Sequence record: NC_054925.1
DNA: 64,000 nt
Source: Escherichia phage vB_EcoM_NBG2
Strand: one strand, 5' to 3'
Part shown: one piece after another, positions 178 through 3,503 of the stretch
Position numbering within the stretch: the stretch's first letter is position 1
Layout of the letters: each line of letters opens with the position of its first letter
Translations under genes and position numbers: made by a program
The notes under the pieces: model-generated
What the model was told of the DNA's origin: nothing
Databases searched by the model: none
The model's input: only the letters and a program-made list of their open reading frames with translations

Positions 178-441
178 TCAAATGTCGAAAACTTCACAGT
201 ATGCATCCTTAATACAAGATACAGCCATATCTTGTAATGATTTAGGTGTGTCATTATCTAAAATGTTGAAGTTAAAAGATACAGCCCAATCTGTACAGAC
301 CGTAACCTTTTTAATACAATTATCTTCAACCTCTAGCGGTTCAAACCAGTATTCAATAGTTTCTTTATGCCCAATATCATCTTTTACTTCGCATTCAAAA
401 TGCTGACTCATCATAACATTTTTAAATTCATCAAAAGTCAT
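178..441 (-). CDS. hypothetical protein (87 aa)
   Basis: ORF track; stop abuts gene 47 start region; no recognisable motif. Confidence 0.5.
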   Translation of the reverse strand: MTFDEFKNVMMSQHFECEVKDDIGHKETIEYWFEPLEVEDNCIKKVTVCTDWAVSFNFNILDNDTPKSLQDMAVSCIKDAYCEVFDI

Positions 442-1457
442 TGTGTTGCCTCTACATATAACTGATTTGCATATTGAATAAGTGCTTCACGGTCAGAATC
501 AGTGATGTCTGGAATTGCATTAATGTATTCTTCCATCAATGTCTGAAGCGATTGAACTTCAACTTCTTCACTGTCATCTGACTCGACAGAGTTATCAATC
601 TTTGACACAACTCGTAATGAATGCACAACTTTTTCTAGTTCAGATTCGAACTTCGTTAGATTTTTGTCTACTTCAGTTACTATAACACGTACTGATAGAT
701 TTGTAAAATCTTTATAGTCAATTTTTCCTTTAAATGGATAATGAATTCTACGATGCCAGGTAGTATTGTTTGGAATAAATTCCATTCGTTCTGTTTCTGT
801 ATCAAACATCCAGAACCCACGAGGGTCATTCTCGTCACCTGCAGTTAGTGTCCATGGTGTCCCAATATATCTGACGTTTGCAGCCTCAGAAATAGTATGG
901 AAGTGACCAGACCACACTTCTTTATAAGTCTTAAGGAAATCGGGTTCAAGACCGTGAGATTTCATTCCTTTATAAAAATAAAATCCATTCAGTTCCCAGT
1001 GACCAACACAAAAAGAAGCAGATGAAGTTTTGATGTGTTCAAGAATTTCACCAGTGTTTTCTTCACACATCCAAGGAATCAAATCAATCAAACACCCGTC
1101 AAACTCTACTGTAGTAGGCTTATCATATACTTTAACATTAGGATATTTAGCCAAAAGCTCAGTAGAGGCATTTGGATGCATTACATTTTTATAGTGGAGA
1201 TCGTGATTTCCTACAATAGTGTGTAATGTAATTCCAGCATCATCAAGCGTTTGAACTATTTCACGGGCAAACTCCATAGTTTTATGTGTGATCGCTTTTC
1301 TCACATCAAAAATATCACCATATTGAATCCAGGTAGTAATTCCATTTTTCTTAGAATATTCTATTGCTTGTTTAATTCCATCAATTTGAATACCGCGAAT
1401 CCACTCATCATCAGCTTTAACGCCTAAATGCCAATCACCCAAGTTTAGTATTTTCAT
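438..1457 (-). CDS. 47: recombination endonuclease subunit gp47 (Mre11-like phosphoesterase)
   Basis: 339 aa; calcineurin-type phosphoesterase motifs (GDWHLG, GDIFD, GNHD, GHWE, GHFH); length matches T4 gp47. Confidence 0.93.
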   Translation of the reverse strand: MKILNLGDWHLGVKADDEWIRGIQIDGIKQAIEYSKKNGITTWIQYGDIFDVRKAITHKTMEFAREIVQTLDDAGITLHTIVGNHDLHYKNVMHPNASTELLAKYPNVKVYDKPTTVEFDGCLIDLIPWMCEENTGEILEHIKTSSASFCVGHWELNGFYFYKGMKSHGLEPDFLKTYKEVWSGHFHTISEAANVRYIGTPWTLTAGDENDPRGFWMFDTETERMEFIPNNTTWHRRIHYPFKGKIDYKDFTNLSVRVIVTEVDKNLTKFESELEKVVHSLRVVSKIDNSVESDDSEEVEVQSLQTLMEEYINAIPDITDSDREALIQYANQLYVEATQ

Positions 1458-2058
1458 GGTGTCTTTTCCATCCTAATTTAGCTGCTTTTGAAACTAGTTC
1501 TTTAATTTTTCCTTTTGTCCATTCAGGACCAGGAGGTTCATGACATAACATTTGCTTAACTCCGTTATTATACCATTTTTTACCTTTATTATGTGATGAA
1601 GCTTTAAATTTATTTGACCTTCCTTTTACATAACCTTCTGGAATATAAGGCAAAAAGGCAGATTTTCCTGTTAATGGATCATGTGAATGTATATTTCCTT
1701 TACAATTATGAGAACCATATAATGGATGATTTTGTCCTTTATTATCTCTTCCAAATGAACCTTTTGGAGCAGCATATGACATATTAAAGAATAATGGATT
1801 TTTAACTGCATCATGCAATCGTTGATAATATAACTCGCATTTAATAGCTTCTTCACGCGTATCAAATTTAGCTAAAATGCATGAATCAAATAAGTGAGGA
1901 TTATCTGAAAGCTCTTTATTATAAATTTTCTTATACTTTTTAGATAAAACTGAACCATGATATCCAGCTAAATGCCTATCTAAAGACGTAGATCCAATAT
2001 AAAAAGGAGGAAGTTTATCTCCACTATATATTGTTAAATAAGTTATATATTTTTTCAT
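1435..2058 (-). CDS. putative GIY-YIG family endonuclease-like protein (free-standing, Seg-like)
   Basis: 207 aa; N-terminal YLTIYSGDK..FYIGSTS then R, E and N at GIY-YIG-like spacing; basic Gly/His/Lys-rich C-terminal half; overlaps gene 47 start by 23 nt. Confidence 0.55.
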   Translation of the reverse strand: MKKYITYLTIYSGDKLPPFYIGSTSLDRHLAGYHGSVLSKKYKKIYNKELSDNPHLFDSCILAKFDTREEAIKCELYYQRLHDAVKNPLFFNMSYAAPKGSFGRDNKGQNHPLYGSHNCKGNIHSHDPLTGKSAFLPYIPEGYVKGRSNKFKASSHNKGKKWYNNGVKQMLCHEPPGPEWTKGKIKELVSKAAKLGWKRHHENTKLG

Positions 2059-2234
2059 ATATCAAGAACCGTCATTGAAATGCAAAATAAAATTATTGAA
2101 ATAAACCCATCTGGTGTGCTAAAGAACCCAATCCAACATGCTCTAGTGAATAGATAAAATGCAAGAAAAAGTATCACATATCCAAGAAATATCATTATAT
2201 CAAACTCCGCATAAAGCTAAAGGGCCGAAGCCCT

Positions 2235-3437
2235 TTATTTTGTAATAATGTCAAACTGTTCTTTAAAACAGAAGCTTGAATCTTGGTGCTGATACAAAAA
2301 TTCATATGCTTTTTCTCGCTCACGGTCATAAAGAGCTCGGTCAGATGACAGTTCTTTAATACGTTCAAACGTTGATTCCATATCATTTTCATCAAACCAA
2401 ATGATACCGCTATCATGCGAGGTCAAAGGAGTATTATCAACACGGAATTTTAAATTTTCGCCAGTAGATTTCCAAAATACCGGAATTGTTCCACATGCAC
2501 CAAGCTCGAGATGAGTATATTCTAAAGAACGTTGTAGATATTTTTTGTCCAACTTACTCAGCTGATAACCAAATCCGGATTTACTCATGCGTTCAAGCAT
2601 TTCGCTATTTACATAACGATCAAGAATTTGCGTTGGCAAATTAGGAGCAATTTTAATTTGGTCTACTTGATGAAGACGATAATACTCGTATGGAATTCCT
2701 TTTTCTTTAATAGGAATGAACGCTGGAGAACGTTCCAGACCTTCCATAATAGTACTTAGTCCTGCAGGTTTAAGATGTTTTTCATGAAAATCAAACATCT
2801 GATAAAAACCTTTCCATGTAGTCGTACGACCAATCCAACGGTTAACATTCATGTTAATTTCAGAAACATCTTTCCAGTAGGTTGACCGAACCTTCGCAAT
2901 ATCCATAGGAGGCTGAAAGTTATATACTGTCGGTGCTTCTTCAATATCATCAAACAGAGAAACAGTTTCTGGATACCATTCTTTCATCAGAACTTTATTA
3001 AAATCACCATTATCAGAATGACTAAAAATAACATCAGCTCGACGAACAGTTTCTTCTAATCCCAAATTTCGACGCAAAGAAAGAGAAGAATGGTCATGTT
3101 GATAAACTACAACACGAACAGAAGGTTTAATGTTATCAATAATTTTTTTATAGTTATTAATAGTGTCTTCTTCAACCGAAGTAGCAGGAACTGAATTGAT
3201 AATTAGAATATCACAATCATTTACCAGCTTAAGTGTTTTATCATATTCTTTTGCCAATAAAACCGGAATTGAAAATGATTTATAATCATGCGCGCAATTA
3301 CGAGTAAATGATTTATCTTTAGCATAAACCAAAGTTACTTCATGACCATTCTTAATAAACCAATCACGTTGCTCAAGAGAAAATTTAGTTACACCACAAC
3401 CTTCAAGACCTCGAGCCATAAAAATACATACTTTCAT
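2235..3437 (-). CDS. a-gt: DNA alpha-glucosyltransferase
   Basis: 400 aa; near-identical over its length to T4 alpha-glucosyltransferase as recalled. Confidence 0.93.
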   Translation of the reverse strand: MKVCIFMARGLEGCGVTKFSLEQRDWFIKNGHEVTLVYAKDKSFTRNCAHDYKSFSIPVLLAKEYDKTLKLVNDCDILIINSVPATSVEEDTINNYKKIIDNIKPSVRVVVYQHDHSSLSLRRNLGLEETVRRADVIFSHSDNGDFNKVLMKEWYPETVSLFDDIEEAPTVYNFQPPMDIAKVRSTYWKDVSEINMNVNRWIGRTTTWKGFYQMFDFHEKHLKPAGLSTIMEGLERSPAFIPIKEKGIPYEYYRLHQVDQIKIAPNLPTQILDRYVNSEMLERMSKSGFGYQLSKLDKKYLQRSLEYTHLELGACGTIPVFWKSTGENLKFRVDNTPLTSHDSGIIWFDENDMESTFERIKELSSDRALYDREREKAYEFLYQHQDSSFCFKEQFDIITK

Positions 3438-3461
3438 TTAATATCCTCTTTGTTTTGGTTT

Positions 3462-3488
3462 ATTTTACCAAAAATTTATAAAGCAATA
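3462..3488 (-). promoter_or_regulatory. candidate middle (MotA-dependent) promoter upstream of a-gt
   Basis: On minus strand tatTGCTTTA (MotA-box-like) then about 11 nt then TAAAAT. Confidence 0.4.
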
Positions 3489-3503
3489 TAGGAGCCGAAG
3501 CTC

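Follow-up and report, generated by a model that had tools for sequence, protein, structure and literature searches.

Intronless homing with localized marker exclusion has been shown for the phage T4 enzymes SegA, SegB, SegC, SegE, SegF and SegG, of which SegG cuts in gene 32. Fifteen homing endonucleases are listed for T4, none of them between genes 47.1 and 47 (PMC2988022, Table 1), and the one nearest to that site is mobB, on the far side of a-gt (PMC2988022). Here we analysed a stretch of 64,000 nucleotides (the window) of Escherichia phage vB_EcoM_NBG2 (NC_054925.1), in which an open reading frame (ORF) of 207 codons plus a stop (1435..2058, minus strand) occupies this locus left empty in T4. 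With a probability of about 0.8, we read the ORF as a free-standing, intron-less Seg-type GIY-YIG homing endonuclease gene, carried as a promoter-less 601-bp cassette in the 47.1-47-46 operon. A sequence-only reading of the window had proposed a Seg-like homing endonuclease here; nuclease-domain homology, the empty T4 site and a sporadic distribution support this proposal, with enzymatic activity as a prediction. Several GenBank records already name the protein 'putative homing endonuclease' or 'GIY-YIG domain-containing protein'.

The N-terminal half is a GIY-YIG nuclease domain

The N-terminal ~105 residues (1744..2058, minus strand) make up a GIY-YIG nuclease domain that has T4 SegA-G and I-TevI among its relatives. 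The sole Pfam match was GIY-YIG (PF01541) over residues 4-84, with an E-value of 5.6e-4 and 20.6 bits against a curated gathering score of 22.6. The GIY-YIG profile hit that had been named as the check thus exists by E-value and falls short of the gathering cut-off. Profile-profile comparison (hhalign) of the family with an alignment of T4 SegA-G, I-TevI and I-TevII gave a probability of 97.8% (E 9e-13) over 92 columns, which cover the GIY-like strand, YIG, the GY(M/H)GS motif, Glu and Asn. Searches of PDB sequences with the protein and with a 44-sequence profile returned nothing relevant, and a fold comparison was therefore needed. In the AF2 model of the protein (predicted local distance difference test, pLDDT, 84.5), a three-stranded sheet is flanked by helices as in the GIY-YIG fold. 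I-TevI accounted for all top three Foldseek matches in the PDB, and the matches among the predicted viral structures of BFVD are named GIY-YIG, Seg-like or group I intron endonuclease. Taken with the invariant E75 and N92 described below, the sub-threshold Pfam match, the hhalign result and the Foldseek matches to I-TevI bear out the GIY-YIG-like identity first proposed from the letters.

The domain carries ITY7/TIY11, Y20-I21-G22, R28, G32-Y33-H34-G35-S36, E75 and N92. Residue conservation was computed over 44 aligned relatives, 15 of which match PF01541 (E<=0.01), 20 NUMOD3 and one SegE_GIY-YIG. The segments YLTIYSGDK and FYIGSTS picked out by the sequence-only reading are indeed present, at residues 7-15 and 19-25, but the gap of nine given between them is wrong, as only three residues (LPP) separate them. 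ITY7 and TIY11 both lie within strand 4-11 of the model, 12 and 8 residues from Y20IG, and hhalign places Y7 opposite the Tyr of Seg 'YTY'. Y20-I21-G22, within strand 19-25, is aligned with the YIG or YVG of nine out of nine T4 enzymes. Conservation reaches at least 90% at Y7, Y11, Y20-I21-G22-S23 and R68, among others, and the invariant residues include Y33, S39, E75 and N92. The Seg GY(M/L)GS motif that follows YIG reads G32-Y33-H34-G35-S36 here, and E75 and N92 are aligned with the Seg Glu and with the invariant Asn of the Seg and I-Tev enzymes. As for the catalytic Arg, Glu and Asn proposed earlier, Arg28, Glu75 and Asn92 are all present (I-TevI counterparts R27, E75 and N90); Glu and Asn stand as invariant residues, and it is uncertain whether R28 is the counterpart of I-TevI R27.

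The product name 'HNH endonuclease' is attached to this protein in NC_054920, NC_055723 and other records, and it is also the description of phrog_10820, the PHROG that the protein matches best (E 2e-94; phrog_314, 'homing endonuclease', E 4e-17). However, Pfam returned no HNH-family match even at E up to 1, its sole match being GIY-YIG, and NCBIfam gave only a spurious sub-threshold match and none that was relevant. The fold matches are GIY-YIG proteins and not beta-beta-alpha-metal nucleases, and the profile homology is to Seg proteins. As no HNH model or fold matched, the RefSeq and PHROG label is unsupported, and an HNH enzyme is extremely improbable.

The same nuclease domain recurs with other C-terminal halves. 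Among 5.8 billion proteins searched, the first ~105-120 residues are common to many that differ in the C-terminal half, often with NUMOD3 repeats. An exhaustive search of 1.84 billion cluster representatives found 1,464 relatives at E<=1e-3 (1,163 at <=1e-10), and most of them match only residues ~1-120. In paralogs upstream of gene 39 (HX01 gp190, Klebsiella phage Mexia gp006 and one in Yersinia phage TG1), the nuclease domain is 52-65% identical. Like the 47.1/47 ORF, these genes are free-standing and each overlaps the start of a downstream essential gene; unlike it, they have a C-terminal half of NUMOD3 repeats and a different tail, and they adjoin the topoisomerase gene 39 instead of gene 47. 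The overlap with the gene 39 start amounts to 8-14 nt in HX01 (L034 1498-2181) and Mexia (L035 1498-2190). In T4, the HNH gene mobA stands upstream of gene 39 instead.

A basic C-terminal half resembles SegB and SegE

Residues ~106-207 (1438..1743, minus strand) form a basic region, described here from phmmer comparison with SegE and SegB, the secondary structure of the model and isoelectric point (pI). The basic Gly/His/Lys-rich tail described by the sequence-only reading was confirmed, as residues 100-207 have a pI of 9.97 and contain 39% K+R+H+G, along with a motif also present at the C-termini of SegB and SegE. Pfam gave no match in this half; relatives carry NUMOD3 repeats in its place, and the region itself holds a degenerate NUMOD3-like 'GQNHPLYG'. 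The model shows two beta-hairpin units here, the first closed by IPEGYVKGR and the second by PEWTKGK, and places a terminal helix at 186-200. Against T4 proteins, phmmer matched 'HSHDPLTGKSAFLPYIPEGYVKGR' and 'KKWYNNGVKQMLCHEPPGPEWTKGK' to repeated SegE units (…VPEGFVKGM, …IPDGFIKGRL), and the same two strings to the SegB C-terminus (…IPEGWFKGRKMKF). The motif that the basic C-terminal half has in common with SegB and SegE is PEG(Y/W/F)xKGR. By analogy with these enzymes, the C-terminal half would be a putative DNA-binding region.

Overall, SegE and SegB share with the protein the nuclease type, a YIG followed by GY(M/L/H)GS, and the conserved Glu and Asn. SegB has one unit of a hairpin plus P(E/D)G(W/F/Y)xKG(R/M), SegE and the present protein two each, and all three genes are intergenic, co-oriented with their neighbours and ~205-221 aa in length. 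Identity to the two T4 proteins is low, with phmmer E-values of 1e-5 to 1e-3 that refer to a database of only nine proteins. The loop between beta1 and beta2 is 2-3 residues longer than theirs, with a conserved KLPPF, and the genomic site is 47.1/47, whereas T4 segE and segB stand at inh/uvsW and in the tRNA cluster. Of the T4 homing enzymes, SegG, encoded between genes 32 and 59, gave the top single phmmer match, over residues 15-113; it shares the 'PP(F/Y)YIGS' form of the YIG strand but differs in the C-terminal region and insertion site. I-TevI (catalytic domain 1LN0/1MK0) is ~16-19% identical, with the equivalent of its Arg27 not securely placed. It is intron-encoded, in contrast to the free-standing gene described here, whose product lacks the Zn finger and the helix-turn-helix DNA-binding domain of I-TevI.

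The ORF fills a junction that is empty in T4

By annotation, the 47.1 stop codon in T4 directly overlaps the start of gene 47, with no gene between them. Pairwise alignment with T4 placed 601 extra bp between 47.1 (a 46-aa homolog at 2055..2195, minus strand; phrog_6693, E 1.5e-31, and T4 annotation) and gene 47 (438..1457, minus strand; Mre11/SbcD-like nuclease subunit by Pfam Metallophos and T4 annotation). Together with an alignment of 17 genomes, this defines the insertion relative to T4 and other ORF-less Tequatrovirus as 1458..2058 or, equivalently, 1451-2051. The junction is ambiguous because a 7-nt direct repeat, TTTTCAT (ATGAAAA on the coding strand), stands at both ends, at the start of gene 47 (1451..1457) and at the start of the endonuclease ORF (2052..2058). 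By virtue of the repeat, the ORF therefore has the very initiation context found at gene 47 in T4, and the cassette could be lost precisely through the same repeat. The absence of any gene at this position in T4 rules out the alternative that the ORF is simply a conserved T4 gene, and the remark that its placement differs from the homing endonucleases of T4 holds, with none listed between 47.1 and 47 (PMC2988022).

The ORF overlaps both neighbours. Its ATG overlaps the 47.1 stop codon (ATGA), and its last 23 nt, ending in the TGA at 1435-1437, overlap the start of gene 47, in agreement with the overlap reported earlier. What lies upstream of gene 47 in the window is thus the conserved 3' end of the ORF, ...AGGATGGAAAAGACACC-ATG. 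The 5' end of gene 47 encodes the conserved metal-binding motif GDWHLG, 19-36 nt from the insertion junction. GC content is 29.6% in the ORF against 34-36% in the flanking genes.

Presence is sporadic and the coding sequence is constrained

The window belongs to a Tequatrovirus (T4-like); over its first 3.6 kb it shares 98.6% identity with Escherichia phage TadeuszReichstein and 97-98% with many other phages. DNA of the ORF was found at >=95% identity in 67 phage records and the flanking locus in about 500-556, so that roughly 13% of Tequatrovirus records carry it. A 61-nt empty-junction probe run over the record collection hit 422 records at 90-95% identity, the band of the T4-type junction (four mismatches give 93.4%), and matched about 60 records in two separate places, as expected of occupied sites. 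In nine further records, from eight phages including SHFML-26, PBM-1 and UGKSEcP1/2, it revealed an empty site with the flank variant linked to the ORF. Pattern scans of IMG/VR for both junction types gave six empty-site contigs and no occupied one, too few to use. The synteny comparison of the interval that had been suggested thus shows a sporadic distribution among close relatives.

Comparison over 3 kb of eight ORF-bearing and nine ORF-less genomes, the 17 of the alignment, showed that beyond a few hundred bp the flanks are as diverse in genomes with the ORF as in those without it. In the ~300 bp of gene 47 that adjoin the insert, diversity was 0.018-0.05 in the former vs 0.058-0.08 in the latter. 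The ORF itself is 96-100% identical within Tequatrovirus, while the a-gt flank differs by up to 10%.

The ORF is no chance reading frame but a constrained gene under purifying selection. The ~96%-identical Tequatrovirus allele (phiC600P9, SA20RB, P922) differs from it by 17-18 synonymous and 4-7 non-synonymous changes, with a ratio of non-synonymous to synonymous substitution rates (dN/dS) of 0.05-0.09; the ratio was 0.10 against the homolog of Salmonella phage SEA1 and 0.18 against that of Escherichia phage IME08. With values in a range of 0.05-0.2 and an ATG start and a TGA stop, the 207-aa frame first listed at 1435..2058 is a real gene. One residue stands out in this genome: Lys64 (LAKFDT; codon 1867-1869) is Glu or Asp (LAEFDT or LDEFDT) in the other seven homologous sequences compared, a charge reversal.

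In Gelderlandvirus SEA1 (79% aa identity), Dhakavirus IME08 (61%) and Jiaodavirus KPV15 (69%, frameshifted), a homolog immediately precedes gene 47 and overlaps its start, and this position is constant despite differing upstream genes. Residence at one site in four genera, at 61-79% identity and under strong purifying selection, is what would be seen if the ORF were an old Tevenvirinae gene, now immobile, that most lineages including T4 have lost and that has a function linked to gp46/gp47; it may be a DNA-binding or nicking accessory factor, or the provider of the translation start of gene 47. The conserved 3' end that overlaps the start of gene 47 and supplies its upstream region would suit the latter, the 7-nt direct repeat would make a precise deletion simple, and empty sites with the flank of ORF-bearing genomes do exist, with SHFML-26 closest to the ORF-bearing haplotypes in 1300-1457. 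However, a 96-100% identical ORF in flanks up to 10% divergent (a-gt) is hard to square with purely vertical descent. Within Gelderlandvirus, SEA1 was the only record with a match spanning the ORF, matches in the next-best Salmonella-phage records being confined to the flanks, and NP4 and CGG4-1 have two unrelated small genes in its place. The protein keeps the catalytic residues of a site-specific nuclease family, and all characterised relatives of such architecture are homing enzymes (PMC2988022). Overall, we consider an immobile resident gene unlikely.

In those two Gelderlandvirus phages the small hypothetical genes are of 47 or 43 aa and of 109 aa (NP4, L032 634-1142; CGG4-1, L033 646-1142), and the difference from the SEA1 endonuclease gene (L029 1498-2118) is a replacement, not a clean insertion. 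Decayed copies were also found: ESh16 and KPV15 are split by frameshifts, and KNP1 and KNP5 have an internal deletion of ~120 bp. The frameshifts between the homolog fragments of ESh16 (L017 2277-2901) and KPV15 (L031 1498-2208) may reflect genuine decay or errors of sequencing. The IME08 record leaves its intact 205-aa homolog (L030 1498-2115) unannotated and gives gene 47 an N-terminal extension that runs into this homolog. Patchy presence, a fixed site beside a conserved gene, decay and shuffled tails are the standard signature of free-standing homing endonucleases.

Other endonuclease genes were noted close by. HNH-type homing endonuclease genes stand between 46 and 46.1 in T2 (L007 222-836) and SHFML-26 (L027 19-873), and in SEA1 one with an AHHILPKSIFPEY motif follows right after gene 47 (L029 3115 onward). 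Endonucleases of different families therefore seem to have a hot spot in the 46-47 cluster.

Silent changes in gene 47 accompany the ORF

Comparison of the eight ORF-bearing and nine ORF-less genomes and hybrid-junction searches singled out four synonymous differences in codons 3-6 of gene 47 (1440..1449, minus strand), which read ATA CTA AAC TTG here and ATT TTA AAT TTA in T4-type genomes. Over the 3 kb, the only fixed differences between the two sets were at window positions 1440, 1443 and 1449; the fourth silent site, 1448, differs in seven of the eight genomes with the ORF. At 8-17 nt from the junction, the changes immediately precede the GDWHLG-coding sequence. Across the collection, they are present at roughly 60 occupied sites and absent from one (ERS-1); among the empty sites, nine have them and about 420 lack them. 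In SHFML-26, the adjacent 160 bp (1300-1457) are closest to the haplotypes of ORF-bearing genomes.

These changes fit a target in the 5' end of gene 47 that the changes would protect. They fit equally well simple linkage, in which they would be carried along by the cassette, and again equally well a loss of the cassette exactly at the 7-nt repeat, with the linked variant left behind. They are suggestive, and not diagnostic, of the target site. We also considered whether they tune the structure of gene 47 mRNA; real and swapped folds of the initiation region were all weak (z 0.3-1.5) and uninformative.

Expression and the surrounding genes

Sigma-70-like sites in or just upstream of the ORF were below chance expectation, and the T4 late promoter TATAAATA was found nowhere within ~20 kb of it. 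A terminator scan placed the a-gt terminator hairpin at 2218-2237, followed by a middle-promoter-like GCTT-N14-TATAAT at about 2194-2217 (together 2194..2237, minus strand), and in the record of phage SA20RB the corresponding place carries promoter and terminator annotations. This middle-promoter-like site upstream of 47.1 is likely the source of the transcript that carries the ORF, and translation is probably coupled to that of 47.1. With no promoter in or just upstream of it, the ORF is thus a promoter-less cassette in an existing operon, as are T4 segC, segF and segG (PMC2988022).

The neighbouring genes are 46.2 (178..441, minus strand) and a-gt (2235..3437, minus strand; Pfam AGT, E 4e-237). 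Only 66 bp (3438-3503) separate a-gt from the a-gt.2 homolog, and the T4 HNH gene mobB (L001 3886-4680 in T4) is lacking; the same spacing occurs in T2, RB27 and most relatives examined. A tblastn search of the 64-kb window with T4 SegA-G, I-TevI and I-TevII found no further GIY-YIG homing endonuclease at E<1e-3; the T4 mob (HNH) genes were not searched. If collinear with T4, the window should cover the T4 sites of I-TevII, segB and segC.

Discussion

The data suggest a cassette that would spread by homing at the 47.1/47 junction. The ORF would share a transcript with its neighbours, which probably starts at the middle-promoter-like site before 47.1. When an ORF-less phage infects the same cell, the C-terminal region may bind in or near the conserved 5' end of gene 47 or at the 47.1/47 junction, and the GIY-YIG domain would go on to cut both strands of the ORF-less genome. 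Repair templated by the ORF-bearing genome would transfer the cassette, together with short tracts of its flanks, to the recipient, with intronless homing and localized marker exclusion as the predicted outcome. The only signs of such homing, both indirect, are the lower diversity of the ~300 bp of gene 47 beside the insert in ORF-bearing phages and the linked silent changes. As the 3' end of the ORF overlaps the start of gene 47, it would replace the initiation region of that gene, which would couple retention of the cassette to the expression of an important gene.

Several observations weigh against this reading. Three concern the silent changes as an immunity or target marker: nine empty sites carry them; one ORF-bearing record lacks them, albeit ERS-1, an unverified, low-quality assembly with frameshifts even in gene 47; and SEA1, with the ORF, and CGG4-1, without it, are identical in codons 1-20 of gene 47. 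On account of these three results, we treat the four-change cluster as linkage or co-conversion, possibly a clue to the target. Moreover, R28 lies in a short helix (26-30) of the model, the one in which the I-TevI R27 counterpart is expected, and its column is R or K in most relatives and N or Q in some; SegA-E likewise show no Arg that can be aligned at the I-TevI R27 position, and R68 could substitute for the canonical Arg. Conservation at one locus across genera also fits an old, frequently lost resident gene. Finally, we found no experimental study of the protein in the searchable literature.

A homing-type nuclease might also be kept mainly because it benefits the phage, by excluding rival alleles or by local recombination or amplification, with selfish spread as a secondary matter. 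Purifying selection over a long divergence and the interlocking of the ORF with gene 47 expression would agree with this, and there is a precedent in SegB, which was recently reported to promote amplification of anti-defence loci (PMC13096335). Yet the analysed data hold no sign of any benefit, and a prevalence of ~13% together with decayed copies fits a selfish cycle of gain, decay and loss. We therefore think such a role quite improbable.

The position is kept in at least four Tevenvirinae genera, always overlapping the start codon of gene 47 and supplying its translation-initiation region, and homing itself depends on the resection activity of the Mre11-like nuclease that gene 47 encodes. 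On this basis one may speculate, as a rather unlikely idea, that the Seg-like lineage is a long-term specialist of the 5' end of gene 47 and not merely parasitic: it would be interlocked with the expression of the recombination nuclease, which it might modulate, or would serve as an allele-exclusion weapon there, and its hairpin/PEGxxKGR repeats would be an undescribed DNA-binding module.

Such genes are a well-known class of mobile phage genes and will not surprise phage biologists, and the current understanding of phage homing endonucleases is unchanged. What the locus adds is a probable, uncharacterised free-standing GIY-YIG homing endonuclease at 47.1/47, a site that is empty in the T4 paradigm, and a correction of the 'HNH endonuclease' mis-annotation propagated in RefSeq and PHROG. 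It also illustrates domain shuffling, as one nuclease head is joined to differing, putatively DNA-binding tails beside gene 47 and gene 39. With occupied, T4-type empty, variant-empty and decayed sites, the public genomes provide a natural series for the target site and for the cycle of gain, decay and loss.

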